Origin: Convolutriloba macropyga
Taxonomy: Eukaryota
DNA: 64,000 nucleotides
Assembly (NCBI RefSeq): GCF_964194025.1
Contig: NC_134479.1
Location: 25,916,001-25,980,000, forward strand
Reading direction: 5' to 3'
The position numbers were made by a program, and so were the translations under genes. How positions within the stretch are numbered: position 1 is the first letter of the stretch; each line of letters starts with the position of its first letter. Of this stretch, positions 14,391 through 64,000 are shown piece by piece. The notes below the pieces were generated by a model. The model saw only the letters and a program-made list of their open reading frames with translations. It did no database searches and was not told the origin of the DNA.

Positions 14391-14394
14391 ATTT

Positions 14395-40949: not shown

Positions 40950-43211
40950 GTGGTAAAGCTTGGATGTCTTGCTCATCATCTGTGTTAAATCTGTCGAGTG
41001 TATTCAGTGACAGTGTTGGAGTTGCGGGCATAGAGTTTCGTCGTTGCTGTCGTTTATTAGTTCCCATTTTTTTCTGCAGAGATGACTGTTGGTGATTTCA
41101 TGAGTTGTTTCGCGAGATTTGAAACTACTTCAGCTTTCACATGTTTCGGTACGGAAACTACTGGATTAAGAGGTAAATTGTTTCCATTAAGCGTCATGAA
41201 GTTTAATGCCATTCGTACAAAAGCTACTTTATGTTATAAATACATGAAGATGATATGTAAGGCTAAGTTTCCGATAAAGACAATGATTGTTAACAAAAGA
41301 GAAAGCTTGATGGGTACGTAAGATTTAAGTTTATCAATTATTGCTGGTTTAAATGACTTCATTTTGGTAGTAATGGGCTTTGCTAATGATAACTTTCTTT
41401 TGATCATAACGTCCAATGATTCCGTTGATAACTTTCGATTGGAATAAATGAATTCTGTGTTAACTTTCTTCAGTAAATTGAGGTTTGCGTCTGTGCTTGT
41501 TTCGTTTTTTGTAGCTCGCTTATGTTTGGCATTGAGTCAATTAAATGATCCAGTGGTGCAAGCAATTTCACATTGATTCTTTTCGCTGGAAGGTACTGAC
41601 AACTTTGTAAATCAGCTCTAATTTTAATATGGTCACTGAACATTGTATGTCCACATTATAATGTGATTCAACAGATCTTACAACCTTTATGAGGCATGTT
41701 GGTTTGTCGGCCATTCTCGTCAATACCAATCTCATTAAGAGGAAAATCACTTGAAGCTGATGTGAGTAGCCAAATTCCGTATCCAAGATTCTGTGCTCGT
41801 TCTGGGATAGGTAACACAACCTTCTCTATGTCACATATATTCAATGCTGTAAGTGCATGATGAAACTTGAGGGTTGCTAGGCACGAGGAGAATCCAAGGT
41901 GGGTTTCCCTTCTCTCGTGACAGATTCGGTATCGTAGCGATCCAAGGCAGTTGTCGTACTGGGATCTCGTCAGTACTGTTGTTTCCATCTGTCCTCCTGA
42001 GATTGCTAGGTATTCTCCTTCAATCACCCATTGTAAGGCATCAACTGAGTCTTTCTGGGGCATAGGGATTACATTTGCACAATAGACTTCAAACACTGTC
42101 TGGCTAGAGGCTAAAAGAATGGCTAGTGTCAGTAAAAGTCCGTCTTCTACTGTCGAAATCTCTTGTACAAGTTTCGCGTTGTTTATAAGAAAGTGTGTCA
42201 GTCATGGGTATTGCCAAAGTTAGACGATCTGGGGCGTTTTTTTGACTATCATGAACTGCATCAAGGATCTTTATCAAAGATTTACGAAGTACTTACGATA
42301 GCATTTATAACAATAATTCGGAAAAATTATAAAGCTGCTCGATAACTTTTAATGTCTGCATAAAGTGTAAGAAGTAATGATGCTGCTGTGTCAAAATTAA
42401 ATTTATTTCGGTGCTGCGTTGCTTGAATTTCCATGCAGGTTGCTAATTCATTTAGATTGTGATCTACGATTGCGAATTGTTCCTCAACTAGTTTCCAGTT
42501 TCTGTTCTGGTTTTCTCGCATTTCGTTTTGAACTTTAAAAACCTTTGTAAGTTCGTCAGCAATTAGAAAGAATTTTTCGTCTGTTTCTGCGCCGTTTTCC
42601 ATGACATAGTCTTTAAGGTTAATAAAACTGTTAGCTAGTCTATCGATGTTTTCAGCATTTTGAGACGTTCGTTGGCACGAGCTGAAAATTCCTGCGATTC
42701 CACTGCATCTTCCGCTGCTCATTGCTATTCCTGGACCGGAGAGTCCAATTCCAGCAACTGCGGCAGCTATAGCAAGCGAGGCGGCTGTCTTTTTTCGATT
42801 TGGGTGTCCTCTTCGACTCTTGTAAGGAAATTTTTGGTCTCGTTCCGCAGTTTGAAGACTTCAATTTCGGCTTCAATTGTTTCATTGAGTATTTTCGTGT
42901 AAAGCCAATCAGCATTGAAAACCTCTCTTTGCTTTTCATAAGTAATACTGTGTGTCATATTGCAGAACTCTGACTTAGTAATTCATTAACTTGAGAGTTC
43001 ATGAATTAGAGTTGGAGTCTACTTGGTGTCGCACAGTAAAGTTATAGCGGGGAAACGGGACTAAAAACTCCGCGTTTATGAACTTCTCAGTGATAAGGAT
43101 CTTTCCTTCCTTGTGGAAGATTATTCCTTGGGCCGGCGTTTCTTCTGTGTTGACTGGAGTCTCAAAATTGGCGCCGAAAAGTACGAGATTTATTACGATG
43201 GTAAGTAACAT
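40950..43211 (-). pseudogene. env: Envelope / class I fusion glycoprotein (errantivirus-env / baculovirus-F-like), disrupted
   Basis: Signal peptide MLLTIVINLVLFGA; GIIFHKEGKILITE; cleavage site RKK(T) at 42,797-42,786 (one base from RKKR) directly followed by fusion peptide AASLAIAAAVAGIGLSGPGIAM; heptad helix (42,327-42,722); Cys-rich domain (41,668-42,096); TM LSLLLTIIVFIGNLALHIIFMYL; cytoplasmic tail. Confidence 0.85.
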
Positions 43212-44412
43212 TTTCGTATTTAAATAATAACAATTATGTTTCAGGACAATCTTCTGATGATGTGGCTCTTCTGGGTGTTCAACTGGTTTCTATTTGGCTT
43301 TCCGGTGTTCATTTGCTCATTTATTTAATGTAATCGGGCCTCTGGTTCTAATTTTCTCAATATGGCACTTATTTATGTGGTATTTATTTGTTTCAGGTGA
43401 ACTCTACTTTCCCACCACATGTATTGATGTGTGTGTGTTTATTAATATTACCACTAAATATGGTGTTTAAACATGCTGAAGTGTAGTTGTTTGGTTAAAT
43501 GGTGGATGTGTGATGATAGTGGTTGCGGGGGTCGAATTATGCAGTTTTTACATGTTTTTTTGAGTTTTTCAGATTATTCTGATATCAATATGTTTTTTAA
43601 TATTACTGTCGGCCCGAATAATATCACTCTGGGATGCTGCAGCAACGGGACCAGGTATGTATCAAGGAGATGGGTTCACTGGTCTCGTCTTATTCATTCA
43701 GAGTGTAATATTAATGCAATATGAAGTACAGTAATAGTTAATAGTATAGAAGATGGAAGAGATGGTTGGGACTGTGACGTAATATTGTTATTAGTATTCA
43801 TATTATTATTCATGCTATTCGGGATTATTGGGATGTGGAGAAGAAGAAGGAGGGGAAGATGTGTGGGAGGAAGGGAGGAGAGTGTGGAGATTGAAGAAGA
43901 GAAGGATGAGGGAGGAGTTGAGATGCAGGAGATGACAGTATAACTAGTTATTTATATTTTTTATTTAACTCATTGACTGACTTTTAGTTATATATACTTA
44001 GTTGTAGTTTGGATTAGTTTGTTTTAATATACTGACTAATACACTTGGTGCTATTAATAAAAAATAAGTTGCCACTAATATCATAGTATTTAGTATATAT
44101 ATCAAACTTGTTTTGTGGGGGGTTGAGGACATAATTAGGGGATAAAATGAGGCGTAATGAATAAGTAAATGTTAGTGAAGGGTGTAATTGTGTGCTCAGA
44201 GTGGTGTTGTGTGTTTTACGGCATGTGTTGTTAACTATTAGCGGTCGTTGTAGCATGGTATTTAAAAGTCCTTGGCATTTATTGCATAATTTGTTCCGCT
44301 TGTGTGTTTTCATTCCTGTGGTTGTTCATTTTTCAAGTGTCACTTTAACTTTTAGCTTGCTTGATAACTAGTTTGACTCAGTTTTTGAAATTTCAGTTAC
44401 CTATTGTTAGTC

Positions 44413-45124
44413 ATGGATGCTGCCCAGTATGAAGATTTTCTGTCTTTCGTGCGAAGAAGATCGTTTCCTCAGTCTGAATGGGTGTATCCAGCATTTGTTC
44501 GGACATTTGAGGACCGAAAAGCTTATCGGGCAAGGGTAGAACACTTGAGACTTGGAACAAAGAATGTGCGGACGTCGAAATTGGTCGTGAATCGCGAAGT
44601 ATTGGTGTAAAAAGTGGAAGTGAAGAAGGGCGATGAGGTACAAGTTCAGGAGAAGGAGATTCCAACTCAGCAGATGGTCGCTCAGGAATTGGCTCCTCTT
44701 CATGTCGGGTTCAGTGCTTCAGCGGTGCACACGACTCGTGTGGGGACGCAAGTCAATCGCTTGAAAGCTGGCGGGTTATTTCCACGTTCGATGGGTGGAT
44801 TGCAGGCCGTCGTTGAAAGGTAAATGCATATGTGTATAATAATTATGTATATTTTTATGTATTTTTCTTTAGTTTTTTGTGTTTATTATTACTTGTGGAG
44901 GGATTTGTGCTTTTTGTTCAGAGCCAATTGTGAATGCGTGCTATTTTTTCGCGAAGAAAATGCGCGGCAAAGAGGTGCATTGCACTTTTTTCTATGCGAA
45001 TCTTCGCGCAAATGTGTGTGCTGTTTTGGGGTATGAGTTCTACAATGACATTTACGCTGAGTATGTCGACGTAGTGTCATTTATAACTCCAAAGTGGCTT
45101 GGTGCGGCTGCTGTTAGGGCCTAA
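44413..45124 (+). pseudogene. Antisense cargo ORF inside the element, apparently spliced; weak resemblance to integrase-type HHCC zinc-binding region
   Basis: TTTCAG acceptor at 44,391-96, ATG 44,413, ~135 codons in one frame with a single stop (44,608), AAG|GTAAAT donor at 44,820, short AT-rich intron-like tract, then Cys-rich sequence; H-x8-H in LHVGFSASAVH. Confidence 0.4.
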
Positions 45125-46439
45125 GTTGGCGGTCTTTGTGCTCTCAGGGATCTTTACTACACGTTATTTGGTCGAAAGTCGGGTATTTATTGTGTTTTTT
45201 CGCAATTTTCATTAGTTTTGGGACTCTAATTCACATTTATTCGATTTATTGCAGTTAAGAAGGTTCCCTAATAATATTATTCGTGCATTGCGCTTGGCTA
45301 TTGTGGCCCGGATGCGTTCGCCTGGGTTCTCGGAGCTTGTGAAAGACCAGTTAGGATAATCTGTGTCTGAGTATGAGATTGCTGAGAGTGAAGACAATGG
45401 ATCATTGGCCGAGTTCTGGGTAAATTATACCTTCAATACGTGGTAATTCTGGTACGAGAATGTGTAGGTAGATGTAATCTGAGGTTTTGTTGTTTAGTTT
45501 GTTGGTATGGCGTATTTCCGTGGATGCAATGTCAATATCTATTGGCAGTATAATGAGGAAATGGCGGTGGGCTGGGTATGCTACAGGCATTCTGTCAAAG
45601 CTAAGGCCACCGCTCCGGCTGTACTGATCCAACAATTCATCAACAATTCATCGACAATGAGTATCGGTACCATTGTGCGCCAATTGTGGACTTTCCGAAG
45701 TGATTATTTAACTGTTTTTGTGCAGAATTAATCGATTTTTAGTGCAATTTTGAGACAATTTATTCACTTTCATGCCCTTTAAACAGGTTGGATGAAGTTG
45801 AGAGGTACGTGACTTGTTCTAGTAAGGCAAGGGGTCATGCCGTTCAGAGTACTAGTGGTGGTGGTACTGTGGCTCAGGATAACGCCGATGAGAATTAACT
45901 AGTGTAGGTGCAATTGTATTCATCATGTAGCTTAGTTTTATTTATAGGTGAGTTTTTACTTATTATTTGTCGATTATAGCCTTGATAATTGGTTTTTACT
46001 GCTGGAAGTAGGAGCTTTGGTGTATGTGAGCATGTGGTAATGTTTTAATTGCGGTGTATAACTATATAATGACATATTTGTGAAAGTGCCAGAATGGTGA
46101 TATAATGACTTTTTTTTTCATTTTTGAGCATTAACTTTGCTTTACTTATGAAATATGGGTCTTAGACTGGTTCTAAGGGCTCTAAACACTTGCGCTAGTT
46201 GTTTGCGGCACTTGCCTTTTTGTGTAATATGAACTGGTTTGAGAGAATCTAATTTTCACATGTAATTTTTTTTCGTAATTTAGGTAATTTTTCTGCATCA
46301 AACTGGTGTTACATATATGTGAATTTTTCAATTTTTATTGAAATTTTAGCAAATTTTTTGGCTTGGCCCACTCGATAGACATTGGGGAACAATTAAGCTT
46401 TAAATTTAGGTTTTAGGACACTTTGCGGTCAATTTTTTT

Positions 46440-48790
46440 ATTCATGTGTGAGAAGTCGAAAAATGCGAAATTTCAGGCAGCCCAGCGTCACGCGATTTTT
46501 AAGTTGCTCCAATCGGGCTCAAAATTGGCAGACTGCTTCAGCGGCTCAAAAAATGCTGCAGCAAAAAAAATTTGGCGAAGTTTGAGCATTTTTCGCAAAG
46601 TTATGATTTTTCGCAAAGTTATGACTATTTTCGTGATCGGAACCTGGCTATTTTTGAATCGTCAAATTTCGGGCTAAATAAGTCATCACTGTTCGTACAT
46701 TATCAATACTGTTAAATGGCACTGTCCCTGCTTGGTACTAATGTATATTACTAAACTATAAGTTTTTAAGCTATTTATTGGGTCAGAACATTGATTTTTG
46801 GATCCAAAATTCTAATTTTCAGGCGTGATTTTTCCACTAATTGAGCTTTTTCAAGACATGTGTCGGTCTAGTGATGCACTAGTGGCCTAAATCGGGCGCT
46901 AAATGTTAGTACTGATATCTGTGGCTATCAGGGGTAGCGTTTTGGTAGCTGTGGAGATGTTTAATTTGTGTTTTGTGCCAGTTTTTCTGTGAAATTTGGT
47001 GGATTTTTTCTTGTGATACGTGATGTTTGGTGCATAAATTGACATAGGTTGGAGATAATAGATTTTTGACGATAATTGAGGGTAACACTAGTGAGTACTA
47101 AGTTGGTGGCAGCTATTGGTGCAGTTTGATGCATGATTTGAGGTCTTTTTTTTTGAGTTTTTTAATTTAGATTTTTTGGCTAAATTTGATCAAATATGTG
47201 CAATTTTTGATTTTTTTTTTATTTTTTTCAACATTTATGAATTTTAGTGCAATTGTATTATTAGGCTTGGGCAACTAGTAGAGAGTCTGAATATTGGATA
47301 TGGGCTCATAAGTCAGCTATTTGATGCTATTTTTCTGGCTCTATTTTGACTAATTTGAGAAGAGTTTGGTAGGCTTCAGTTTTTTGCTATTATTTCAACA
47401 GTTTACTTATCAATTTTCAAAAATTTGATCAAGTTGAGCGTGTAGAGCTTGAGCCTGCGGATGTCTTAAGCTAATAATATTGGGTTTTTGATCACTATAT
47501 CAGATTCTATAAACATGTTCGTGAATTTTCAAAGAGTCTCCAAAAACAGGCAGCCCAGCGTCACGCAATTTTTAAAATGCTTCGATCGCGCTCAAAATTT
47601 AAAGATCGCTTTATCGGCTCAAAAAATCCTGCAGCGCATTGGACGGTTTCAACAATTTTTTCAAGAGCTATGACGTTTTTGCTGCAGTGAACCTGGGTTT
47701 TTTGAGAAGGCTCAGATAGGGGATAGGTTATTGGCTATGAGGTTATGAAAACCTTGTTCAAAAGGGTTGAACAGCTATGGTTGGACTGTTCAAGAGTATG
47801 TCTAACTGAATGAACAATATTATTGGGCATATTCAGGTATTAAGAAGCTTTTTTCATAACTTTTTTTTGGAAATTACACTCAATTTTTTGTGATTTTCGT
47901 TACTTTGGCAGTCTTTTCTCAGCTTGTATTGGCACTAAGGGACTGGGAGTGCATATTCTGAAAGATATGGATTTGAAAGTGCTAATGGTGTAGTTAAATT
48001 TTGTCAGAAATATTTAATTTCATCTCTAGTCGGAAATAACTGAATTTTTTTAGGCAAAATTGTGGCAATTTTAGAGCTTATTTGTGTATAAGTCTTCATG
48101 GTTGGTACTGGGCTGAGCTGGGACTGGTTCTTAAGATACTAAAAGGCTAGTGGGGAGTACACCAGGGTTGTAGAGGGCATATGTGGCATCAATCAGGTCA
48201 GGTGGGAAATAAAATGACAAAATTTTTGAAGCGGTGAATTGAAGCAGAAGCGCAATTTTCGTGTTTTTGTCATTTTTTAACATATACTTGGAAAAAATTG
48301 GTTTTAATGGTTGTTTGACGTTGTACCAAGTGGATGGCAGCTGTGAGTAACTGCTGGAGGCATTTGGGACAGTTTTTGGCATATTTATGGGGTATAATTT
48401 ACACTACAATTTAATCAATTTTAACGAAATTTGGTAGGGTTCGGTATTTTTGCCATAACTCAAGTTTTATAGATTTTTGACGGGCATTTTGGGTACTGGG
48501 ATGTCACTCGTGAGCAGTAATTTTCTAGGTCTATAAAATAGGTCAATTGGGGGTTTTTTGTAGGAGTTATCGTTGAATTCGTGCGGATTCAAAAAGTGTG
48601 AAATTTCAGGCAGCCCAGCGTCACTCAATTTTTAAAATTCTTCAAATAGCTTCAAATTTTGCATATCAATTTTGCGGCTTGAAAAACGCAGCGCAAAAAT
48701 TTGGAGTAATCGGGGCGTTTCTCACAATTTTATGACTGTTTTTCTGAGGTGAACCTAGGATTTTTGGCAAGGTCAATTTTAGGCTAAGTT
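46440..48790. repeat. Three ~200-bp modules with invariant core CAGGCAGCCCAGCGTCAC spaced ~1.07 kb apart
   Basis: Core at 46,474, 47,547 and 48,607 (fourth at 51,198 via duplication); each followed by ..TTTTAA..TCAAA.TT..CGGCT..AAAAA..GCAGC..TATGAC..GAACCT.G. Confidence 0.85.
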
Positions 48791-49027
48791 TTTGTTAATT
48801 GGAACGGGTCAGAAGGAGTCAATTATACCTGAAATCACTTTTACTGAATTAGGGCTTTTCAGAACGAACAAATAGTTCTTGAGATATATTAAAATAACTA
48901 GGTTTTAAGGTCAAAACTTTTCGAATTTTCGACAATTTTTGAAATTAGGGCTAAGTTGCTCAGGCTTGTTGGGCTTTTGGTGCAAATAGAGGGTTTTGCT
49001 AGGCTTGTACTTTGTCTGTTCGTGCGA

Positions 49028-49420
49028 ATGGATATAGATGGTTATGGGTAGGGGGTTAAAATCTAATTTATCATAGTTGCTAAATTATCATAGTTACCAC
49101 TGACGAGTTTCGGGTGTATTAAGTGTGAAATTCCTGCTTCTATTACTATTTTTCTCAGTTCATAAAGACTTGCTAATACAGTTTGTATGTGGGCTTGTAA
49201 TAGTAACTAATTTTGGTAACTAAACTGAAGATATAACGCTCAAAATATTGGTCAAAAGATATTAAAACTGAGCCAATTTTTTGTGGATATCTAAGTTTGG
49301 TTGCGCTTGGGGCTGCTGGGTAACAGCTTTTGACTTGTCGGGCTAATCCCTTTGCCATTGCAAGGTCTGCTGATATACAGCGGGCAAAAGAGTGCGGAGA
49401 GTATAAGATATCTCTTGGTG
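49028..49420 (-). pseudogene. TARG1/OARD1 (Poa1p-like) macrodomain, duplicate copy
   Basis: RDILYSPHSFARCISADLAMAKGLARQVK...RYIFSLVTKISYYYKPTY; small insertion near the GYDKL motif in this copy. Confidence 0.85.
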
Positions 49421-51637
49421 AACTTAGATATGTTGCAATTATTTCTTGACTAAAATGATTTAAATTTTAATTTGTTGACCTTGACAGAGTTTTTTGATTG
49501 AGATCTAGTTACTGGTCTAGTTCCTGTCAGTTAACATAAATTGTTCTTCATGTGTTTCTGGAGGTGATTCTATGTCAAATGGTACTATTGATGGTTGGGA
49601 CTGTTGAGCAGGTAAAAACATTCCGTCACCTGATGAAGATGATACCAGAGGAACACGAATTTCTGTTTCTTGCTGTCTAATTTCATCAGAAATTAACGGA
49701 TGAAACGGTTTTCTAGCTATTTTTTCTGCATCTAGGTTCAAGTGAGAGAGGTTTTTATCTGAATTGATAATTTCTTCAAATAAGTTGGGAATTGCTTCAT
49801 CTGAAATTGAAGAATCAAATACCGGGAGATTTACTGATGCTGTTCGTGGTCTAACTACTGGTGCTACTACCCTTGGTGGGGCCAGTGGTACTGCTGGAGG
49901 TGCTGCTGCTGCTGCTGGTCTTGCTAATGGTCCACATAGGGGAACATTTTTGTTCACTCTGACTGGGTCTTGTTTCACCGTCTTTGATTGTTGTATCTCC
50001 TTTTCTTCTTCGATTATTAATTCCGGAATATGTTTATCAAATAGATCTGGTTCAATATGTTTTCTTCTCGATGGATCAGGGTTGAAAGTTTTCATGGTTA
50101 ATGACTTCAAGGTCTTCAGGAGTTTCACTTGGTTTAATTGGTTTCAATCTGATACGATGTACATATTGTGTTTAATTCGTGTTTACTTTTCGAATGATAT
50201 AATTAGAGTCAGTGAGGACTTCTTCCACTTTATATAGCGGTAGCCATTTCTGAACTTGGGGAGTTATTACAGTTGATTGTTCTAGTAGCTTAGGGTTCAA
50301 AAGTAAACAGAGTGATTTCTCCGAAATAGGTTTAGCTGAGGCTTTTTGGTCATAGTACTTTTTTTATTTCAAGTGTGCAGTCGTCAGTTATTCTTTGTTT
50401 TCTCCAAAGTTTTGCATCATGGCGTCTTGCAGTTCATTTTAAAATCCTAATTTACTGCTACTGCATCCATTACTTGTCTAGAGAATCTAATGTCAAGGGG
50501 TTTTATTGGTTCTTTGCAATGGAATAAAGATGAAGGACAACAATTTGTTGCTGAGTGATAAGAAGTATTACGAATGAGCGTTGCTAGAAGAACATATTTA
50601 TACCAGTCTTTCCATTGTGCTTCAGTATTGAGCTTCAATATTGTTTCAGTGGTCCATGAGATCGCTCTACTGCTCCAATGTTCTGAGGGTGCTTTAGTGA
50701 GGCATGTTTTAACTTTGCTTCTAGTAAATTTGCTAATTCTGACATTAATTCTGAAGTAAATTTGTTCCTAAGTCACTAAGTATTGTTTGAGGAATGTAAC
50801 TGTGATGGAAAAACACTTTTACTAATTCTCGGGCTACTGTGTAAGCATATCCATTCGTTAATGGGACTGCAAATAGATACGTTTTGAAAACATCTAATCC
50901 ACTCAAAAGATACTTAAATTGCGAGGACTTTAGGGGGCCTACTAAATCGATTTGGAGCATATCTCCTTGGTATATTTATGGGGTATAATTTACACTACAA
51001 TTTAATCAATTTTAACGAAATTTGGTAGGGTTCGGTATTTTTGCCATAACTCAAGTTTTATAGATTTTTGACGGGCATTTTGGGTACTGGGATGTCACTC
51101 GTGAGCAGTAATGGTCTAGGTCTATAAAATAGGTCAATTGGGGGTTTTTTGTAGGAGTTATCATTGAATTCGTGCGGATTCAAAAAGTGTGAAATTTCAG
51201 GCAGCCCAGCGTCACTCATTTTTTAAAATTCTCCAAATAGCTTCAAATTTTGCATATCAATTTCGCGGCTTGAAAAACGCAGCGCAAAAATTTGGAGTAA
51301 TCGGGGCGTTTCTCACAATTTTATGACTGTTTTTCTGAGGTGAACCTAGGATTTTTGGCAAGGTCAATTTTAGGCTAAGTTTTTGTTAATTGGAACGGGT
51401 CAGAAGGAGTCAAATATACCTGAAATCACTTTTACTGAATTAGGGCTTTTCAGAACGAAAGATTTTTCCAGGTTCGAACAAATAGTTCTTGAGATATATT
51501 AAAATAACTAGGTTTTAAGGTCAAAACTTTTCGAATTTTCGACAATTTTTGAAATTAGGGCTAAGTTGCTCAGGCTTGTTGGGCTTTTGGTGCAAATAGA
51601 GGGTTTTGCTAGGCTTGTACTTAGTCTGTTCGTGCGA

Positions 51638-52010
51638 ATGGATATAGATGGTTATGGGTAGGGGGTTAAAATCTAATTTATCATAGCCACTGACGAGTTT
51701 CGGGAGTATTAAGTGTGAAATTCCTGCTTCTATTACTATTTTTCTCAGTTCATAAAGACTTGCTAATACAGTTTGTATGTGGGCTTGTAATAGTAACTAA
51801 TTTTGGTAACTAAACTGAAGATATAACGCTCAAAATATTGGTCAAAAGATATTAAAACTGAGTCAATTTTTTGTGGATATCTAAGTTTGGTTGCGCTTGG
51901 GACTGCTGGGTAACAGCTTTTGACTTGTCGGGCTAATCCCTTTGCCATTGCAAGGTCTGCTGATATACAGCGGGCAAAAGAGTGCGGAGAGTATAAGATA
52001 TCTCTTGGTG
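51638..52010 (-). pseudogene. TARG1/OARD1 (Poa1p-like) macrodomain downstream of integrase
   Basis: SFARCISADLAMAKGLA ~ TARG1 SLAHCISEDCRMGAGIA; RYIFSLVTK..YYKPTY ~ RYIYYLITK..SHKPTY; after a frameshift AGISHLILPKLVSGYDKLDF ~ [20 protein letters not shown]; terminal ITIYIH strand. Confidence 0.88.
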
Positions 52011-52106
52011 AACTTAGATATGTTGCAATTATTTCTTGACTAAAATGATTTAAATTTTAATTTGTTGACCTTGACCGAGTTTTTTGATTGAGATCTAGTT
52101 ACTGGT

Positions 52107-55100
52107 CTAGTTCCTGTCAGTTAACATAAATTGTTCTTCATGTGTTTCTGGAGGTGATTCTTTGTCAAATGGTACTATTGATGGTTGGGACTGTTGAGCA
52201 GGTAAAAACATTCCGTCACCTGATGAAGATGATACCAGAGGAACACGAATTTCTGTTTCTTGCTGTCTAATTTCATCAGAAATTAACGGATGAAACGGTT
52301 TTCTAGCTATTTTTTCTGCATCTAGGTTCAAGTGAGAGAGGTTTTCATCTGAATTGATAATTTCTTCAAATAAGTTGGGAATTGCTTCATCTGAAATTGA
52401 AGAATCAAATACCGGGAGATTTACTGATGCTGTTCGTGGTCTAACTACTGGTGTTACTACCCTTGGTGGGGCCAGTGGTACTGCTGGAGGTGCTGCTGCT
52501 GCTGCTGGTCTTGCTAATGGTCCACATAGGGGAACATTTTTGGTCACTCTGACTGGGTCTTGTTTCACCGTCTTTGATTCTTGTATCTCCTTTTCTTCTT
52601 CGATTATTAATTCCGGAATATGTTTATCAAATAGATCTGGTTCAATATGTTTTCTTCTCGATGGATCAGGGTTGAAAGTTTTCATGGTTAATGACTTCAA
52701 GGTCTTCAGGAGTTTCACTTGGTTTAATTGGTTTCAATCTGATACGATGTACATATTGTGTTTAATTCGTGTTTACTTTTCGAATGATCTAATTAGAGTC
52801 AGTGAGGACTTCTTCCACTTTATATAGCGGTAGCCATTTCTGAACTTGGGGAGTTATTACAGTTGATTGTTCTAGTAGCTTAGGGTTCAAAAGTAAACAG
52901 AGTGATTTCTCCGAAATAGGTTTTGCTGAGGCTTTTTGGTCATAGTACTTTTTTTATTTCAAGTGTGCAGTCGTCAGTTATTCTTTGTTTTCTCCAAACT
53001 TTTGCATCATGGCGTCTTGCAGTTCATTTTAAAATCCTAATTTACTGCTACTGCATCCATTACTTGTCTAGAGAATCTAATGTCAAGGGGTTTTATTGGT
53101 TCTTTGCAATGGAATAAAGATGAAGGCCAACAATTTGTTGCTGAGTGATAAGAAGTATTACGAATGAGCGTTGCTAGAAGAACATATTTATACCAGTTTT
53201 TCCATTGTGCTTCAGTATTGAGCTTCAATATTGTTTCAGTGGTCCATGAGATCGCTCTACTGCTCCAATGTTCTGAGGGTGCTTTAGTGAGGCATGTTTT
53301 AACTTTGCTTCTAGTAAATTTGCTAATTCTGACATTAATTCTGAAGTAAATTTGTTCCTAAGTCACTAAGTATTGTTTGAGGAATGTAACTGTGATGGAA
53401 AAACACTTTTACTAATTCTCGGGCTACTGTGTAAGCATATCCATTCGTTAATGGGACTGCAAATAGATACGTTTTGAAAACATCTAATCCACTCAAAACA
53501 TACTTAAATTGCGAGGACTTTAGGGGGCCTACTAAATCGATTTGGAGCATATCTCCTTGGTATGATTGTAGTGAACTGACTGGTTGCAACTTAGGTGTGA
53601 TGCTGTTTTTTGGAACTCTGTTTAATTGGAGACAAGTGAGGCAATTTTTGATGAAAATAATGAAATGTTCGGTGAAACCTGGGTATTAGAATCGCTTTAT
53701 AATTTCCTGAATTGTTGCTTTGATGCCTAAATGACTTGCTGTTTGTGAATTATGGAGCCAATATATAGTCTTTTTCCACAAATTTCTAGGTACGCAGAAT
53801 TATTTATGAAGTACTTTTCCGGTATTATAATAAAAATTCCTGTATAAACATTCCCTTCAAGAATTAATCTATTTAAATTTTGTGATACTTTTTTAAGTTT
53901 GTTGAAGCATAATTTAAGTCTGGTTGTTGATTATTTTGTTGAATCCAGCTTATTATTGTTCTAATTTGTGCATCTTTTTGCTGTTCTTCTGCTAAGTTGA
54001 GGCTAATTAAGTTGTCTGTAATGTCTGGGAACTCATCTAATGGATTTGGGTACTGAATTGAGTTTATTTCTTGCTTTCTTTTAAGTTTAAATAGCCCATG
54101 AAATTCTGTAATGGGAAAATTAGTTTTTTGTTGAAGCCGAGTTTTTTAAGTACATCAAGTTCGTCACTATTATTTTCATCACTAAAGTTTTCAAAATGAT
54201 GTAATACATTCAGTTCAAAATCAGGATTTTGTGCTTCTGTATCAATTTCTATTTCTCTAACAGGAATTCTATCTGTTAGTTTTAAAGACATTGTTGCTGT
54301 TTTGTCATTCTCCATTCGGGAGAGAAAATCTGCGGCATAATTAGCGCGTCCTGGAATGTGAGCAATTACTATGTTAAAGGCAAGTATTCTGTCTATACAA
54401 TTCCAAAGTGATGGCGGTATTACTTTTGACTGAAAGATTTGTGTACGCCTTTCGTTGTCAGTAAATATAATTACTTGTTTGCTTCATCCCCAAATATAGT
54501 GCGAAAAGTAGTCCAGCGCGTAGTACAAAGCTAAGAACTCTTTGAGAATTAACTCTCTGAATAAATTGAGAACTTTAATTTCGTTGCATTAAACAAATGC
54601 GATCCAAACGATACGGGAGCGTATGTTTTCTTTTCTTTCTTTACTGTTTTGTTTACTTAAGTTGCTCAAAGAGGTGATTTTATCCTGATGATTACATTTT
54701 GGGTCTAATCTTTCCATTTCTTGCAGTTTTAACAGTTGCTCATATATTTCTCTATGCAAGGGCGACAAGTTTGACGGATCTGGGCATGTTTCAGGCGTTA
54801 GAAACCACAATTTTTCATATTTTGAAGCCGGCTTTGCTGGTTGAGCTCTTCTTTTTGGCGTATCTGTGACTTGGATTTGTTGATTTATTTCTGTTAGGTA
54901 ATTTTTAGTCATTTTTTGCAACATTTATTAATTGACGATCTATTTCTAAGAACTGTTTAGCTTGGCCTGATGTTAAAAATGAAAATTTGGCTATTTCTTT
55001 GCCTTTATTTATGGTAACTTGGTGTTCAGTAATGTTCAGGACATAGATGTAAAGGATATTATTTTCAGCAATTTTACTTAAAGAGGACGTTAATATTACT

Positions 55101-55690
55101 TCGCTATCTTTTTCAAAGATTTCATTTGGAGTTATTACGCCGCAAAGTCAGTAAATAATTCTAGTTTGTCGTGAAGCTTGCATTCTATTAGTGCTTGTTG
55201 GTTTGGCTGTAAAACTTGTTTTTTTCTCTGTATAAACTCCAAATTTTTTACGTTTTACTACTCTTCTGGGTTGCTTTTCTGGCTTTAATTCATTTATTTG
55301 CAGAATTTGCTCAGGGAATTTAATGTAGCTTTGTCCTGGGCAGATACTAACTTTATGTTTAATGAAGAATGGGTTGCCTAATATTGCCGGAGTTGTGACA
55401 ATTAATACAAGGAAGTCTTCAGTGAATGTGTGTGTTCCCAATTTAAATGTAACTTTAATTGCTTTATCAATTTTAACTATATTACCGTTTGCCATTTTAA
55501 CTTTATCTAGATCTGGCTTTTCAGTTTCTGTTATTGAGTTGATATTTGTGTTATTAAGCTCCTTGTAAAACTCACGACTTATCACGATGGCAAATGTTCC
55601 TGTATCAATTAGTGCGCGTCTATCTAATTCTCCATTAAAATTAATTTTAACATAGGATAATGTTCTGCCTAAAAGTGGGACAATACTAAA
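52107..55690 (-). pseudogene. pol: pol remnant: aspartic protease, RNase H, integrase, Pro/Ala-rich linker; RT domain deleted
   Basis: RALIDTG (~55,618-55,598); KEFLALYYALDYFSHYIWG..IFTDN..HIPGRANYAADFLSR (54,545-54,320); LHNSQTASHLGIKAT..CLTC; LQIDLVGP..GLDVFKTYLFAVP..ILSDLGTN..ERSHGPLK; no RT motifs between the protease region and RNase H (junction ~54,655). Confidence 0.9.
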
Positions 55691-55699
55691 TAGTTGCTA

Positions 55700-57161
55700 A
55701 ACATGTGGTACTGGCTTTGGTGCAGGTTGGGGCACTTGTGTTGGGAGTTGCACCGGTTTACTGACTTTACTTTTATTATTATTATTTTTGCGTTTTCTAC
55801 GCTTTTTGTTACTTTTACTAAAAACTGGTTCTATTACATTATCTAAACTAGGACTGGACGTGCTTTCGTTATAATAATTAACTGAGTTCTTATGCTTTTT
55901 ATTTTGTTGAGTGGTTTTATTACTTTTTTTGTTGACTAAATGGATAATTCATACCTCTCATATTTCTATTCTGACGTGCACCTGCTCGACAAAATTCTTT
56001 TGCTTTTTGCACACCGTATCGGTCTTGTGCTGGGCTATTCCCTGTCGAAGAAAATTTGCAGGTGTATTTTTTATTCGAAACGATAAACTGGTCTATTAAT
56101 ATAAGCTTGGTGAACAAATGGAGGGCTATCTGAAGGTTCTGTCCAATTTTTCCGAGTTTGTGGCTGTTCATTATGATAAAATGGTCTAGGGGCATTAAAT
56201 TGTGGTCTAAATTCTCGGTAACTATTAACACGACGGGAATACTGCAGATGGGGCCGATAGTGTTGCTGAAATTGACGACAATTGGGCTGATATTGGTAAT
56301 AATTTGGTCGATAATTTTGATATTGGGGGCGGAAATTTTGTCTATAACTTTGTTTGTAGACTTGTTGTGGGTACTGTGTTGTGAAGATGTTTACTGGGCC
56401 TTGTTCTAGTGGTTCATTTTTAAATGTTGTTCTCTTATCAAGTTTTTGTTCAAGTTCTTTTTGGTTATTTGAAATGACTGTTATTGCTTTTAACATTTTA
56501 TCAGTGTTTTCTTTCTGTTATTTCATTAAAACCGTCGTCAAAATACTATTCTCTATTACACATCTCCCTTATTGCAATTTGTTGGCTCGCTAAGGTACAT
56601 AACTGATCAATTGTATCAGTATTTGGCCTTTCTAACAGCTTAGGTTTAAGCCAGTTTGGCATAGACTTAATAAAGAAACGCTTTTTTTGTTCGTTTTTTC
56701 GATTTTCTGATGTTTCAAGGGCAGCATCTCTTGCAGCTCTCTCTCTTTCAAATCTGCGAGCCTATGGGTCACCTGCTCCTGCTGGCGCTACTACTAATTC
56801 GGGTATTGGGTATGATTTATTTGCTTCTGTTCTCAACTTTACTAAGAAGTTTTTTACTGTATCTGTTTTTGGGTAAAATTTTGATTCTCTAACTTTATTA
56901 TTCTGATTTCTCTCAAGAAGTCTTGCGTGAATCTATTTGTTAGAGCTGTCATCTTGTCTTCAACAGCTAGTCTGGTAGCCTCTGGTAAGGTTAAGAAGTA
57001 TCGTAAAGCATCTCCTTTTAAATGAAACTGCAAAAATTCTTTTGTTGCGCGCCTGCGACTGATACGACTCCGATTGCACCTGTTATTAAGTAATCGAACT
57101 CGCTAAAATTATCCGTTTCTGATCCAGAAAAGGGTGTGGTGTTGATTTGCGCGTGTGTCAT
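55700..57161 (-). pseudogene. gag: gag remnant of nested element
   Basis: ATG at 57,161: MTHAQINTTPFSGSETDNFSEF...FLQFHLKGDALRYFLNLPEATR (Gypsy capsid-like); Q/N/Y/P-rich segment 56,071-56,496; decayed Zn knuckle ~56,060. Confidence 0.8.
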
Positions 57162-58388
57162 TTTGCTTTTTACCCAATTCGATTATATACTTAACGTTCA
57201 ATCAGTCTTACTTTGGTTCTCAGTTATTAAATAGCACATTTAACTTAACTTAATGGGGAGGTTGAGTGGCTTTAAGAGATGGAAAAGATTAAATGAATAA
57301 CACAAGAATATCAGGAAAGAAACTACTGAAACCATTCGTTCAGAAAATAATAAAGATGGGCTGCTTATGAACCTATTCCTAAAGCTCCGGTCAACTCGTC
57401 AGACTTATATCGTTGAAGCCGTATGGGCCGCCGAAGTCTCACCTCTAAAAAGTGCCCCTTAGTCTAGGAAAATTCGTGGAAACCACGACCGCACATGCCA
57501 TTTGGAAGCTCCAATATGGTAGGCAACAGCATATTGACCGAAGTCACTGTTTGATTCATTAACCTCCGGAGCTGGGTGTGGAACTAAATATAATTATTTT
57601 TAATTTTCTATGTAAACTTTTGTTTTGCCCTCTTTTAATTAATGTTTATGTTATGGTTTCAGTAATTCAGCTTCTTCTGGTGTTATCTGATAATCAGTAA
57701 TGATGTTGTCAAGGTTAATTTCTTTATCAGATTGAAGTTAGTTACGAATAAGGCCAAATTTGCGAGATTTCTTATTTAAACTTTTTTGCTGTCCAATAAA
57801 TTGCAACACCTTTGTCATCTTTATCTAGCACATAAGTTACGATGGGTATACAAACTGAAGAAGAGAAAGTGGTTACTATCTGAGCTTGCGTTTTGTTACT
57901 GTTTTGCGTGTAGTTAAAATTATTTCGATCAATATGTTCAACAAAATTGGGGAAGCGCGACAATTATTGATAGCGGGCAGAATTTGTTCTTTATAAATTG
58001 ACATAAATAAAGCACCAAAGATTAATTTTACAAATTCATTTACTCACAACATGCTCATTTGTAAATACCCTGTGTTGTTTTTGTCCGTTGTGGCGGCTGT
58101 GGTTGAGTTTGTTCCAGATATTGCCCACTCAAACACTTTTGAATTGTTATTGCATTTAGTCCACAAAGACACAAACACAGTTTTCACCAATTCTTTCCTT
58201 TGTTATCGCTTTTCGCATTATCGTCTTGCTCGGAAAGGGAGAACTGGATGCTGGTTCTTGATGATTGAAGGTTCTTAAGGTAATGAAGAGGAAGAAGACA
58301 AAGAAAATGTCGAAAAAAGGAAGAAACTATCGAAATTATCAAGGAATTATTCGGAATTTTGGTCCGTTAAACTGGGAAACAGTTAATA

Positions 58389-58401
58389 ACTCCTGTCACC
58401 A
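58389..58401 (-). promoter_or_regulatory. Primer binding site, tRNA-Leu-like
   Basis: Minus strand TGGTGACAGGAGT immediately after the LTR; 12/13 match to the complement of the eukaryotic tRNA-Leu(CAG) 3' end (TGGTGTCAGGAGT, from recall). Confidence 0.7.
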
Positions 58402-59241
58402 TGTTAAGCCATGACTTTTAGAAGATGTTTTCATGGTGTTATTGAGACAAATTATAGAAATAACGGGGCAGATTTACTGTCATTTTTCAAGGACTTATTT
58501 TGATGTTTCACAGTGCATTTTTTAGCGGATAAATTTTTAAATAAAGTTAGCTAGAAACAGCCTTTTAATGAGCGGTTCGGATGCGCAATATATTCACTAG
58601 TTGCCTTGGTTTTTAGAGCTTTGTTAGTACTAATTTCAACTCTAATGAAGTCGGCTCAAACTTTGAGTTTTCGAAAGAATTTCCAGTTCAATCTTTTAAT
58701 ACTATGCAAAAAGAACAAAAGTAAAGTTTCAATGATAGAAAGAAGGTTTTCTGAGTTTATTATCAACTGATCTCTGTGTAGGTTCTCCGGTGTTCTGGTC
58801 CCTGTGGGTTCCGTAGGACTGTGCCTCGAGTTGTATTGGTCCTCCGCAAATGTTTACTAATCTACAAGTTTTGTACGTCTCTTGATGTTTGTTAAGTACA
58901 TATACAAGTTCCGTATTAGCACCTGCTTTATCAGAATAATTACAGAACCAAGTACATAATCTCTCGAGAAGTTTTTTACTAATTATCCGAATTTATCTTC
59001 AAGTAACTCAAAAAAGTAAAAAGTGAGGCTTTTAGGTCTTTGATATGTTTATCAGTAAACTGTCAATCTACGGTTATTTTTCATAAACATATACAAATAG
59101 GGGGTTACAGGCTTATATGGGAACACTAGCTATATATGGCCCTGAGATCTATTTGAATTTGAACTAAATTAAAGCACTTATTTATGGATATTTAAAGGAA
59201 TATCATCACGTAACTATGAGGAATGAAATAGGGGCGTGACC
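58402..59241 (-). repeat. 5' LTR of nested minus-strand element (840 bp)
   Basis: TGTTAAG..ACTTTTAGAAGATGTTT ... AATAGGGGCGTGACC; collinear with 39,737-40,352. Confidence 0.92.
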
Positions 59242-59312
59242 TATTGTTACTATTACTATCAACAAGAAAAGTTGCAAATTTCACAAATCTTCCTTTGTCG
59301 CAACAAGGGGTA

Positions 59313-59686
59313 TGTGATACCCGTGGATCTCCTGCATTTCATTTATTTTTTTGGTGCAGTAAAATTTCATATGATGTATTTATTTAGCTCAATTTGTTTG
59401 CCCTTCTTTAACCTTTCACGTTTGATCATTCTATGTCTCGAGTTGTTCTATTGCATCCTTTCCTGGTTTCTCGCTTCGTGATAAGAAATATCTGAGCACA
59501 CATTTCTTAGTTGCTTACAAGCACTTGAATTTATAGAATCATTTTCGTAATTCAATTTCAGTTGTCTTTTCTTGGTAAACTCGCTCGACAAGTCAAGGTA
59601 ACGTAATTAAGCTTGGATTTCGTTCAACAATTCATAAAATCTTAAATTGTTTGTTAACTCGCACTGCAAGTGATCACCGAATTTCA
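59313..59686 (+). repeat. LTR 2 of + strand family (3' LTR of first element, shared as 5' LTR of next unit)
   Basis: PPT-like CAACAAGGGGTA before, TGTGATACCCG start, ATTTCA end, PBS-like TAGTGTACAAC after. Confidence 0.88.
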
Positions 59687-62600
59687 CTAGTGTACAACAA
59701 AGATGCGGAGACAAGCACAGGGAAGATATGCAAAAGTAAAGCAGATTTGTTGACATATCTCAATCTGGGAATCGAGGGTTGGAAAATTTTTTGTTCTCAT
59801 GATATGATATAAAAGATTCGATGAAAACAAAGGAGCTGTGAACCATTCTTGACACTTTTTTGACACAAAAAGACATCAAAGAAAGACCATTTAAAGAGTT
59901 AAAAGATCTCTACGAGAATTGTCCCATAATTGTGACGTAGGAAGATTTCATTAGCCGCGATTTTTTTGGCTGGCATATTTGATAGGGAACTTCGATGCGA
60001 GCGAACTTCTAGAACACTATTGAAACAAAGCGGGCTCTTAAAATAGCAAAAATGAGGTTGGAATACAAAACGCACTGCAGTTATCGGGAACGTCACAATA
60101 TACAAGATTAAAGATATACACCCGAACCACCCAGGTACTTGGGGAATGATCTGTATGGCCACGCTTTGCTGGTGGCCCTAGATGAATCGAGAACTCGTTG
60201 CCAAAGCGACAGAGTACAAACCTTGCACTACAATTGGTAAGAATCTAAAATGTGTAATTCCTGCTAAGCAAATTCGACCTCATATACCATGTGTTGAACC
60301 GAATCAAGAAATGCAAATTGATTTTGTAGAACCTAGTTTTGACGAAAAAGGCAATGAAGTCTATTTCTTAGCTTCTATAGACTATTTCTCTAAATATCCT
60401 ACGGCAAGTATAATTGAAAAAGCTAATGGACCAAAAGTTTTGAAATTTTTGACAATGTCCATCAAAATTCGTGCAATCCTCGCTCTAATCGACTTGACCA
60501 ATCAAAATGTTTAGATGGAAATCAGGTAAAGACCTTTTGTAGTAGAAATGATATTGAAATCACTGAAGTTCCGGTTAATGATCATTGTGCTATTGGTGAA
60601 GTAGAAAGATTATTTCAAACGATTAAGAATGGACTGGCATGTATCAAAGATGAGAAATCGATAGATAACGCATTTCAAGTAAAGCATGCAGTAAGGATTA
60701 TCATTCAACAATTGCGAATTTGCAAACAGAAACCAACAATGATCTCGCCATTCAATGCGCACTTTGGCCGTAATCCTAACACCACTGTTGAGCATAATCT
60801 CCACTTAACCTAAACTGTCTTGTTTCTCATATGAGAGTATTGTAAATCACTATTTAGATGAACACAGAGTCACACCCGAGGCCATTCCCCCCCGACGATA
60901 AATGGCTGCATGGATATCGCAGCGATATTGAAGTGCAACTCGGAAGGACTCGGGCAGCGTGTGAGGCCAATGAACGAGAACAGGCGAGTGCGGATGGCGA
61001 AACACGCTTTATTCGTTCAGGCGCTTGCCGGCCAATTCCGATTACGGAGAGAGCAAAGAAACTCAAACTGGCCCTCAAAATACACGGAAAACGTAGATCT
61101 AAGAAGAATGTGGTGGACCTGTATGAGAATTGCTTGGCTCCCGGTTCAAACACCTTGAAGGTCAGCCCAACAACCTCCACTGTAAATAGCCCAGGAGACC
61201 TATAGTAACGGTACACAATAGCGACATTGCCATATTTGGTACAATTCAGGAGCGACAATCCCCTTTAAGAGTCTATGCGGATCGACGGGGGCGAAGATCA
61301 TGCCAAAACTTGTGGAAGAGCAGATTCAAAGCCACATAAAGCAAATCACCAGAAAACTTAAGGGTGATAAGAAAATGAAGCATCGCAAGCCAGAGCCTGG
61401 CAGTGGGGTTTAGTCTTCTCGTGAAAATATTTTACGCGCGATGCAAGGGCATATCCCTAAAATTCCTGATTTTCTCGCCAACCGCAACCGAAAAATTAAA
61501 ATTCAGACCAATTTGGCACACGAGTTGGCTTTACCCATGCAATCGGCCATGCAATCGACAATGCAGGGCAGCAAACGTACTTCGGACAGAAACCGCGGTA
61601 GCCCATCATACTACGGTTTTGACAACTCATTTTCAGAATCGACCATTGCAGCTTCACCCAAACGTTCACGCCGAGCGGGAGACGTAGAGAAGGTCCAGCC
61701 CACACCTGCATCAGTTGTCGAAACAGTACATAACATTGCCGTTCAACAGCCTGAAGAAATCAACAATTCTCCGATTATCGGAGAAGTTTCGCCACCTGCT
61801 CCGCGAGTGCAACCAATTATTGATGAGGACATCCCGACATTGGTGAGATTGATGACAGTTCTTGAAGCCGAAAACCAAGAGATTTCTGAATTGTTAATTT
61901 CGCAACCAAAACTGCGTAAACTGTAAAATTTTAGTTTAATACTATTCCATTTTTAGCTATGATAACCAGCACATATATTGTTATTATTTATATAACCGGG
62001 GACCAAGTATAAGTTTGTAAATATTGTTACTATTACTATCAACAAGAAAAATTGCTAATTTCACAATTCTTCTTTTGTGGCAACAAGGGGTATGTGATAC
62101 CCGTGGATGTTCTGCATTTCATTTATTTTTTTGGTGCAGTAAAATTTCATATGATGTATTTATTTAGCTCAAATTGTTTGCTCTTCATTAACCTTTCACG
62201 TTTGATCATTCTTTGTCTCGAGTTGTTCTATTGCATCCTTTCTTGGTTTCCCGCTTCGTGATCAGACATATCTGAGCACACAGTTCTTAGTTGCTTACAA
62301 GCACTTGAGTTTATGGATTCATTTTCGTAATTCAATTTCAGTTGTCTCTTTCTATTGGTAAACTCGCTCAACAAGTAAACGTAACGTAATTAAGCTAAAC
62401 CTAAACTGTCTTGTTTCTCATATGAGAATATTGTAAATCACTATTTAGATGAACACACAGTCACACCCGAGGCCAATCCCCCAGACGATAAATGGCTGCA
62501 TGGATATCGCAGCGATATTGAAGTGCAACTCGGAAGGACTCGGGCAGCGTTTGAGGCCAATGAACGAGAACAGCCGAGCGCGGATGGCGAATCACGCTTT

Positions 62601-63790
62601 ATTCGTTCAGGCGCTTTCCGGCCAATTCCGATTACGGAGAGAGCAAAGAAACTCAAACTGGCCCGCAAAATACACGGAAAACGTAGAAGGAGATGTTTCG
62701 CCACCTGCTCCGCGAGTGCAACCAATTATTGATGAGGACATCCCGACATTGGTGAGATTGATGACAGTTCTTGAAGCCGAAAATCAAGACATTTCTGAAT
62801 TGTTAATTTCGCAACCAAAACTGCGTAAACTGTAAAATTTTAGTTTAATACTATTCCATTTTTAGCTATGATAACCAGCACATATATTGTTATTATTTAT
62901 TTAACCGGGGACCAAGTATAAGTTTGTAAATATTGTTAATATTACTATCAACAAGAAAAATTGCTAATTTCACAATTCTTCTTTTGTCGCAACAAGGGGT
63001 ATGTGATACCCGTGGATGTTCTGCATTTCATGTATTTTTTTGGTGCAGTAAAATTTCATATGATGTATTTATTTAGCTCAAATTGTTTGCTCTTCATTAA
63101 CCTTTCACGTTTGATCATTCTTTGTCTCGAGTTGTTCTATTGCATCCTTTCTTGGTTTCTCGCTTCGTGATCAGACATATCTGAGCACACAGTTCTTAGT
63201 TGCTTACAAGCACTTGAGTTTATGGATTCATTTTCGTAATTCAATTTCAGTTGTCTCTTTCTATTGGTAAACTCGCTCGACAAGTAAACGTAACGTAATT
63301 AAGCTTGGATTTCGTTCCACAATTCTTAAATTCTAAAATTGTTTGTTAACTCGCACTGCAAGTGATCACCGAATTTCAATAGCGTACGACAAATATGTGG
63401 AGACAAGCACATGGAAGAAGTGCAATAGTAAAGCAGATTTGCTGACATATCTCAATCTGGGAATCGAGGGTTGGAAAATTTTTTGTTCTCAAGATATGAT
63501 GTACAAGATAGATAAAAACAAAGGAGCTTTGAACCATTCTTGACACTTTTTTGACACAAAAAGACATCAAAGAACGACCCTTTAAAGAATTAAATGATCT
63601 CTACGAGAATTGTCCCACAATTGTGGCGAAGGAAGATTTCTTTGGCCGCGATATTTTTTGGCTGGCATATTTGATAGGGAGCTTCGATGCGAAGGTCTAG
63701 AAAACTATTGAAACAAAGCGGGCTCTTGAAATAGCAAAAATGAGACTGGAATACGAAACGCACTGCTGTTTTCGGGAACGTCACAAAATA
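59687..63790 (+). mobile_element. Tandem array of internally deleted derivatives of the + strand Gypsy family
   Basis: gag fragment 59,700-60,110 fused to integrase-3'UTR 60,128-62,090 (homologous to 37,830-39,730); truncated LTR 62,093-62,396; 909-bp mini-unit; LTR 63,002-63,378; second gag fragment 63,379-63,790. Confidence 0.88.
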
Positions 63791-64000
63791 CACCGATTAA
63801 TTGACTAACGTAGAATAGAAAAAAAAACTTTAGCTCATTCGAAAGGTTACCTCTCTCCCAAATTTCATCATAATAGAGATCACAAGAAACAAAGACCATT
63901 GTTCTAATTGTGATAACAACCGTCACTAACATAAATGTCTAGCATATGGTAAACACTGCAAAATGAAAAAAGGCAACCAAAAAAGGGAAGAAGTTAACTA

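Follow-up and report, generated by a model that had tools for sequence, protein, structure and literature searches.

We analysed a 64,000-nucleotide (nt) window of the Convolutriloba macropyga genome (positions 25,916,001 to 25,980,000 of contig NC_134479.1, assembly GCF_964194025.1) and describe within it a gene of five predicted exons in an env-bearing Ty3/gypsy long terminal repeat (LTR) retrotransposon, where it is placed between pol and env on the strand opposite to the element's own genes. The feature is real, and it is one gene rather than several. Our interpretation, to which we give a probability of roughly 0.6, is that this is an antisense accessory gene of a clade of env-bearing Ty3/gypsy elements, whose predicted product, an HHCC zinc finger joined to an OTU-like cysteine protease, likely removes ubiquitin and so shields the element against silencing or degradation by the host. 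A first-pass annotation, made from the letters of the window, had proposed an antisense, intron-containing accessory gene, and this proposal is supported: the gene is present in 30 of 30 aligned copies of the family, evolves under purifying selection, and occupies the same slot in at least ten divergent element families.

Gene structure and selection within the family

A DNA search of the 1.18-Gb assembly gave at least 41 family matches (40 of 164 candidates scored), of which the best 30 were aligned. Across these copies, modal exon lengths of 410, 260, 164, 200, and 112 nt join in frame into a protein of about 381 amino acids (aa), the splice dinucleotides are kept in 27–30 of the 30, 26 have the ATG, and all 30 have the stop codon; all five exons are open in six (Table 1). 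Intron 3 varies in length as a polymorphism common to copies (77 nt in 21, 78 nt in nine). No donor was identified when one was looked for in the window family upstream of the acceptor that precedes the ATG, and a search for a conserved poly(A) signal among the 30 copies gave a single site, near 46,330, in ten of them.

The window copy itself is broken. Its acceptor, its ATG, and the 135 codons plus 2 nt that run to a GT donor at 44,820 are where the first-pass annotation had put them, and the short AT-rich tract that follows is the 102-nt intron 1, but the first part is not the open reading frame (ORF) that had been assumed, as a TAA at 44,608–44,610 interrupts it at codon 66. The Cys-rich continuation corresponds to the Cys-containing exon 2, which in this copy is frameshifted, as are exons 3 and 4 (261, 165, and 202 nt versus 260, 164, and 200 nt in 25, 28, and 20 of the 30 copies). 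Further downstream, the earlier outline lacked introns 2 and 3 and the exon between them, and a supposedly separate ORF (45,507–45,731) is no gene of its own but exon 4 read from an internal ATG. A proposed mini-exon (45,785–45,810) does begin at an acceptor AG (45,785–45,786), which opens the 112-nt last exon instead. We rejected the mini-exon since the GT at 45,805, present in 27 of 30 copies, is unnecessary for the frame; its alternative use as a donor may occur.

To separate decay from history, singleton variants were read as post-insertion decay and variants common to at least three copies as the record of the active lineage. The ratio of nonsynonymous to synonymous polymorphism (pN/pS) was 0.14 for shared variants versus 0.90 for singletons (Fisher P 1e-18), and shared variants, distributed 28/21/91 over the three codon positions, included no stop codons. 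The same test gave a similar contrast for env (0.18 versus 0.86), and exon 5 was weakly constrained (shared pN/pS 0.69). Variants common to at least three copies were found at none of 16 intron-boundary columns but at 120 of the 323 columns inside introns (P about 0.0006), and pairwise identity among the 30 copies was 0.90–0.93 in exons versus 0.82–0.84 in introns. Introns 2 and 3 carry shared 1-nt length changes, and the only recurring exon gap lies in the G run of exon 4 (four copies). The gene is under purifying selection, and conservation of its predicted intron boundaries makes a real, spliced gene highly probable.

A gene on the minus strand might cast such a pattern as its shadow, or the whole might be a passive, decaying Ginger1-like insertion; this pair of explanations is largely refuted, and we regard either as very improbable. 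In favour of the shadow, the mirror minus frame also had a low pN/pS (0.18; the only one of five control frames to do so), and minus-strand ORFs of 160–190 aa overlie exons 3–4 in several copies. However, majority-stop columns interrupt the mirror frame in four exons (1, 2, 4, and 5), and the 77/78-nt intron 3 polymorphism shifts it, for which reasons the minus-strand ORF over exons 3–4 was itself set aside as a shadow. The proposed plus frame is the only one whose five exons are all free of majority-stop columns. The constraint on shared variants and the spread over at least ten families likewise speak against both forms of this explanation.

Table 1. Features of the antisense gene and of its host element in the window
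Feature	Positions	Strand	Remarks
Splice acceptor AG upstream of ATG	44,395-44,396	plus	AG in 30/30 copies
Exon 1 (predicted): ATG 44,413, integrase-like N-terminal region, zinc-finger His 44,701 and His 44,728	44,413-44,819	plus	
Intron 1 (predicted), 102 nt, AT-rich, phase 2	44,820-44,921	plus	GT-AG in 30/30
Exon 2 (predicted): CxxC (Cys 44,935), pre-OTU motif, predicted catalytic Cys 45,137	44,922-45,182	plus	
Intron 2 (predicted), 72 nt, phase 1	45,183-45,254	plus	GT-AG in 30/30
Exon 3 (predicted): OTU helical part, invariant Trp at end	45,255-45,419	plus	
Intron 3 (predicted), 77 or 78 nt, phase 0	45,420-45,497	plus	
Exon 4 (predicted): OTU beta part, predicted catalytic His 45,671 in H-C-E/N-P	45,498-45,699	plus	
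Intron 4 (predicted), 87 nt, phase 2	45,700-45,786	plus	GT 27/30, AG 29/30
Exon 5 (predicted): low-complexity tail, weak constraint, to stop 45,896-45,898	45,787-45,898	plus	
Small predicted single-pass membrane glycoprotein ORF, ~115 aa, broken in window copy	43,590-43,943	plus	
Host element, env-bearing Ty3/gypsy LTR retrotransposon	39,737-59,240	minus	Protease, RNase H tail, integrase, env pieces
5' LTR, about 850 bp, TG...CA	58,402-59,240	minus	
3' LTR, internal deletion in window copy	39,737-40,352	minus	
env, in pieces in window copy, head-to-head with antisense genes	41,237-43,211	minus	

A predicted integrase-like zinc finger

Compared with 28 integrase H2C2 stretches of these elements, the N-terminal part of the gene gave an HHalign probability of 66% (E 5e-5), with all four H-H-C-C ligands in register with the elements' own integrases and a score of 33.8 versus at most 16 in 30 shuffles. 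A model of this part (predicted local distance difference test, pLDDT, 69; 76–94 per block over exon 1) had Ty3 integrase chains in its top three Foldseek rows (E 0.24–0.47). The likeness to the H-x8-H/Cys region that precedes integrase cores, suspected early on, is thus moderately supported.

A YP-like motif, an HHCC finger, and an OTU domain with introns together make up the outline of Ginger1 transposons (available text of PMC2836005), which is the argument for the nested Ginger-like fragment that had also been entertained. Yet the gene contains no rve match and thus no recognisable DDE core, the OTU Cys following the CxxC within about 65 aa in all ten families; no terminal inverted repeats (TIRs) appeared among the longest inverted pairs (at most 28 nt, at most 82%; five longest per region, four regions); and no transposase-length frame that would mark a DDE-bearing or free Ginger parent was present in 76 exon-1 matches, 150 exon-2 matches, or ten outlier loci. 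The gene is not a Ginger1 element and is maintained by selection, and its reading as a passive insertion is not supported. Its architecture is that of a Ginger1 transposase without the DDE core, from which it may descend, but it may just as well have arisen when the finger of a gypsy integrase was joined to an OTU domain of Helitron type.

A predicted OTU-like protease

When the family profile was compared with the PF02338 domains of this genome, HHalign gave a probability of 97.3% (E 2.4e-11, 129 columns) and a score of 82 versus at most 22 for reversed and 30 column-shuffled controls. In ten of ten families, G-x-C aligned on DGNC and H-C-[E/N]-P on NHWEP, and these families, at 24–54% identity, retain G-x-C, H-C-x-P, the His-His pair, and the second zinc Cys. 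The best single profile match (E 1e-6) was an OTU ORF with the same motif upstream of its catalytic Cys, located beside a Rep sequence that we take, by its motifs, to be Helitron-like. We rate an OTU fold in the C-terminal half as very probable and an active deubiquitinase as probable. The early view of the gene as a regulator or decoy was incomplete in that it missed the OTU-like protease of exons 2–4.

A decoy deserves weighing nonetheless, in which the OTU fold is kept but is non-catalytic or binds something other than ubiquitin, e.g., as a dominant-negative integrase finger that limits transposition. The divergence of the OTU motifs, the missing Pfam match, and the absent DDE core suit such a protein, but the predicted catalytic Cys and His are invariant in ten of ten families despite their low identity (the third triad position being E in nine and N in one), and within the window family each is retained in 28 of 30 copies; we therefore hold it to be distinctly improbable.

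Several observations weigh against our interpretation, and they concern both halves of the protein and the introns. None of the read-throughs or exons scanned matched an OTU or H2C2 family in Pfam, sequence-profile searches of the PDB returned no OTU or integrase match, and under the genome's OTU profile the proteins of the window family ranked 8–9 of 512, not above shuffles. The typical OTU G-x-W-G and the acidic residues before the catalytic Cys have diverged, and the window family has G-L-C, not G-N-C, at that Cys. A model of the OTU part (exons 2–4, introns read through) was poor (mean pLDDT 35), and its structural matches are not significant, although OTU domains fill its top six Foldseek rows (E 0.2–0.9; top rows OTUD1, OTUB-like, and OTUD3) and Otu2 its best VIA-align row (Z 4.2, under 5; root-mean-square deviation 3.5; 62 aligned). 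The zinc-finger match is moderate only (66%), and the splicing is deduced from conservation. Among the joints listed from four runs that behave as DNA contigs, none coincided with a predicted intron bounded by GT..AG, which carries no information on expression. Across families, phases 2, 1, and 0 were imposed in the splice-site scan of 25 loci (13 used; 12 dropped as broken, mis-called, or near-duplicate; three families additionally read by eye), so that their identity is partly by construction. Finally, no homologue was recognised in other organisms (none at E 0.01; none among longer proteins), the 31 matches in the representatives library being exon-sized pieces (31–97% identical).

Elsewhere in this genome, OTU domains also occur within open frames of ~2,500 aa (L049–L055, L061, and L064; G000 C4, C2, C10, and C807), and three other OTU matches (L062, L063, and L065) adjoin Rep sequence that is presumably Helitron-like, judged by its motifs.

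Spread over element families and exchange with JmjC-like genes

Homologues at 24–54% identity were found in the same slot in at least ten element families. Among 40 loci picked by exon-4 similarity, 38 had family-profile matches, all antisense to env and/or pol; of the remaining two, one was antisense to env by tblastn and one had no env or pol within 10 kb. A search with exon 2 added outlier loci that were antisense in such elements in ten of ten cases. Like an antisense additional ORF, the gene is thus antisense, downstream of pol, and conserved in most copies. Two loci, L113 (G000:C1:38,566,000–38,575,999) and L168, hold decayed gene pieces in tandem repeats, the former without env or pol within 10 kb.

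Approaching the slot from env gave a different occupant. Twenty env loci from an env search were chosen for not being near known exon-4 matches, so their counts are not a census; in 19 of them the slot was taken by a JmjC-like ORF, likewise antisense, one carried the OTU gene, and none carried both, while none of the 40 OTU-picked loci had a JmjC match. The OTU and JmjC-like cargos are therefore mutually exclusive in the slot. The JmjC loci (L139 and L141–L158, G000), with the ORF between env start and pol end, fall into two types that are distant from each other (HHalign 46%), 12 having one predicted intron and seven being of a single-ORF type. An H-S-D or H-I-E motif and a distal His are invariant in five JmjC rows, and Pfam gave Cupin_8 (E 7e-6) and JmjC (E 0.003), both below the cut-off. 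The nearest solved structures are PHF8, PHF2, and KDM7 (PHF8 E 1e-5 by profile), so that both the H-x-D/E...H motif and the profile match that mark a JmjC dioxygenase are present. Taken alone, the single-ORF type matched nothing in Pfam or the PDB; in the ESM Atlas it reached JmjC clusters at 0.96, but its recognition score stayed below the threshold of the tool.

In an integrase tree (28 rows; five labelled loci without the region), cargo type needs four changes; counted by label, OTU needs four, intron-JmjC three, and single-ORF JmjC one, and one intron-JmjC family is placed as sister of an OTU family (support 100/98). As the tree is unrooted, we claim neither the order of swaps nor the donor. 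A quick env tree also gave four cargo changes in all. Long branches meet in the cargo-protein tree, from which no origin claims were drawn.

Host element and neighbouring sequence

The host carries the LTRs, target-site duplication (TSD), protease–reverse transcriptase–RNase H–integrase order, and env ORF that characterise env-bearing Ty3/gypsy elements. LTRs of ~850 bp, 95.5–99.6% identical, and the same layout were found in six of six other full copies fetched as separate 10-kb genomic stretches (one match 1.56 kb long), and TG...CA ends with a 5-bp TSD in five of five other copies examined. In an open copy, Pfam matches to reverse transcriptase, RNase H, Integrase_H2C2, and rve stand in Ty3/gypsy order and env is an ORF of 767 aa with a weak Baculo_F match (E 0.003). 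The window copy, by comparison, lacks about 1.1 kb of reverse transcriptase at 54,659 and has a tandem duplication at 48,376–53,563.

Between env and the enzyme gene, a small antisense membrane-protein ORF is found in many families, of the OTU and JmjC kinds alike. Its predicted product has the features C..N-x-T..CC-x-NGT and one hydrophobic helix, falls into two allele types, divergent from each other, within the window family, and ends in E-x-[S/T]-V, which we take to be a PDZ-ligand-like motif; shared pN/pS is 0.34 and singleton pN/pS 0.78. An acceptor AG (43,571–43,572) lies just upstream of this ORF in the window, and a TTTTCAG-type acceptor was found 2–17 nt before every cargo ATG examined, whether of OTU, JmjC, or membrane-protein genes. 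A single leader may be joined to such acceptors by alternative cis-splicing, or an antisense operon may be processed by trans-splicing of a spliced leader.

Other features of the stretch were also recorded. The pol C-terminal end (51,766–52,056; duplicate 49,176–49,466; minus strand) resembles a TARG1-type macrodomain, judged by its motifs, with no Pfam match, and a weak dUTPase match (E 0.03–0.06) lies upstream of reverse transcriptase. Three diverged copies of a 110–165-bp motif occupy the non-coding stretch from pol to the antisense gene (46,448–46,612, 47,528–47,638, and 48,581–48,744). Plus-strand pieces of a second gypsy element, with local duplications, flank the env element on both sides (33,281–39,737 and 59,242–63,800), and positions 1–14,400 of the window hold a tandem array of some 50 units of ~265 bp.

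Possible function of the antisense cassette

Splicing of the genomic RNA does not remove introns that run antisense to it, and such introns therefore pass intact through reverse transcription; those of the antisense gene would persist through retrotransposition in this way. An antisense transcript might start at the 3' LTR, or at an internal promoter head-to-head with env, and be spliced or trans-spliced onto the acceptor before each cargo ATG, alternative acceptors yielding either the enzyme or the membrane protein. The zinc finger, presumably derived from an integrase or a Ginger1-type transposase, would then guide the enzyme either to chromatin or to the complex formed by the element's integrase, where the OTU domain could reverse a repressive or degradative ubiquitin mark on chromatin or on element proteins.

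That the OTU gene alternates with JmjC-like genes, whose nearest solved structures are the histone demethylases PHF8, PHF2, and KDM7, suggests that the slot serves to counteract silencing of chromatin, and we rate a counter-defence role of the gene slightly above an even chance. The wider proposal, that an antisense spliced cassette of membrane protein plus swappable OTU or JmjC enzyme erases host silencing marks and that its enzyme was swapped repeatedly between families, in the manner of a counter-defence island, is more tentative and falls somewhat short of even.

Alternatively, the spliced antisense OTU enzyme might serve the element's own life cycle, through the stability of integrase or Gag-Pol, through budding, or through Env traffic together with the membrane protein. 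An integrase-like finger could dock on the element's integrase, the membrane-protein ORF and env adjoin the enzyme gene, and Helitron deubiquitinases are suggested, in the available text of PMC9741609, to prevent proteasomal loss of transposition proteins. Mutual exclusion with ORFs nearest histone demethylases, however, fits a task on chromatin better than one in the particle, and we consider a life-cycle role unlikely.

Comparison with known systems

HBZ of human T-cell leukemia virus type 1 (HTLV-1) is a spliced basic leucine zipper (bZIP) regulator that overlaps sense genes. It parallels the OTU gene with its predicted introns in being a spliced accessory gene on the antisense strand of a retroelement that has an envelope, whereas the OTU gene is non-overlapping, encodes a predicted transposon-type enzyme, and belongs to a Ty3/gypsy clade. 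The antisense promoter of HBZ lies in the 3' LTR (PMC7264820, as available). Among plant LTR retrotransposons, the accessible text of the same paper describes conserved antisense ORFs downstream of pol (Grande gene23, RIRE2, Retand), with an accessory role proposed. They resemble the OTU gene in strand, position, and conservation but have no recognised enzyme homology in that text, from which the word "intron" is absent, while the OTU gene has four predicted introns, a predicted enzyme fold, an env-bearing host, and an exchangeable cargo.

Ginger1 shares the order of parts predicted for the antisense gene (an N-terminal YPYY-like region, an H2C2 zinc finger, and a C-terminal OTU domain) as well as GT-AG introns (Bao, Kapitonov, and Jurka 2010, PMC2836005, in the text available), but the antisense gene lacks the DDE core, GPY/F, the TIRs (40–270 bp in Ginger1), and a 4-bp TSD of its own, was never found free, and is fixed, antisense, in a retroelement. 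Helitron/Helentron OTUs (available portion of PMC9741609, and this genome's PF02338 matches) have an OTU-like domain with the same upstream 'LC..LG..F...LG.P' motif; the antisense gene differs from them in being separate, with predicted introns and a fused integrase-type zinc finger, in an LTR element. The activity of transposon OTUs had not yet been tested, as stated there. TET/JBP enzymes of fungal DNA transposons have been proposed to counter host silencing, with no retrotransposon carrying TET/JBP found (PMC12730594, as far as its text was available).

The literature search found no prior description of an antisense OTU/JmjC cassette, with Repbase and subscription journals outside its reach, and the words 'antisense', 'OTU', 'JmjC', and 'accessory' do not occur in the main text of a recent survey of metazoan elements that carry env (PMC13524379). 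The antisense gene described here combines a predicted enzyme fold with four predicted introns, evolves under measurable purifying selection, and alternates with a JmjC-like gene in its slot. Retroelements can stably carry genes with several predicted introns when these lie antisense, and annotation based on ORFs or consensus ORFs would miss them. While antisense extra ORFs of LTR retrotransposons have so far been without recognisable function (PMC7264820, in its available text), the OTU gene has a predicted fold that can be named, and this makes a long-standing question directly testable, namely whether retrotransposons, like complex viruses, encode enzymes that reverse the ubiquitin and histone-methyl marks of their hosts. 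The closest precedent for differing enzyme cargo in one slot among related families is the ORF3s of bdelloid LTR elements (GDSL, DEDDy), which, in the available text of PMC5408684, mostly replace env and show no significant departure from neutrality, whereas the OTU gene coexists with env, is antisense with predicted introns, and is under purifying selection.

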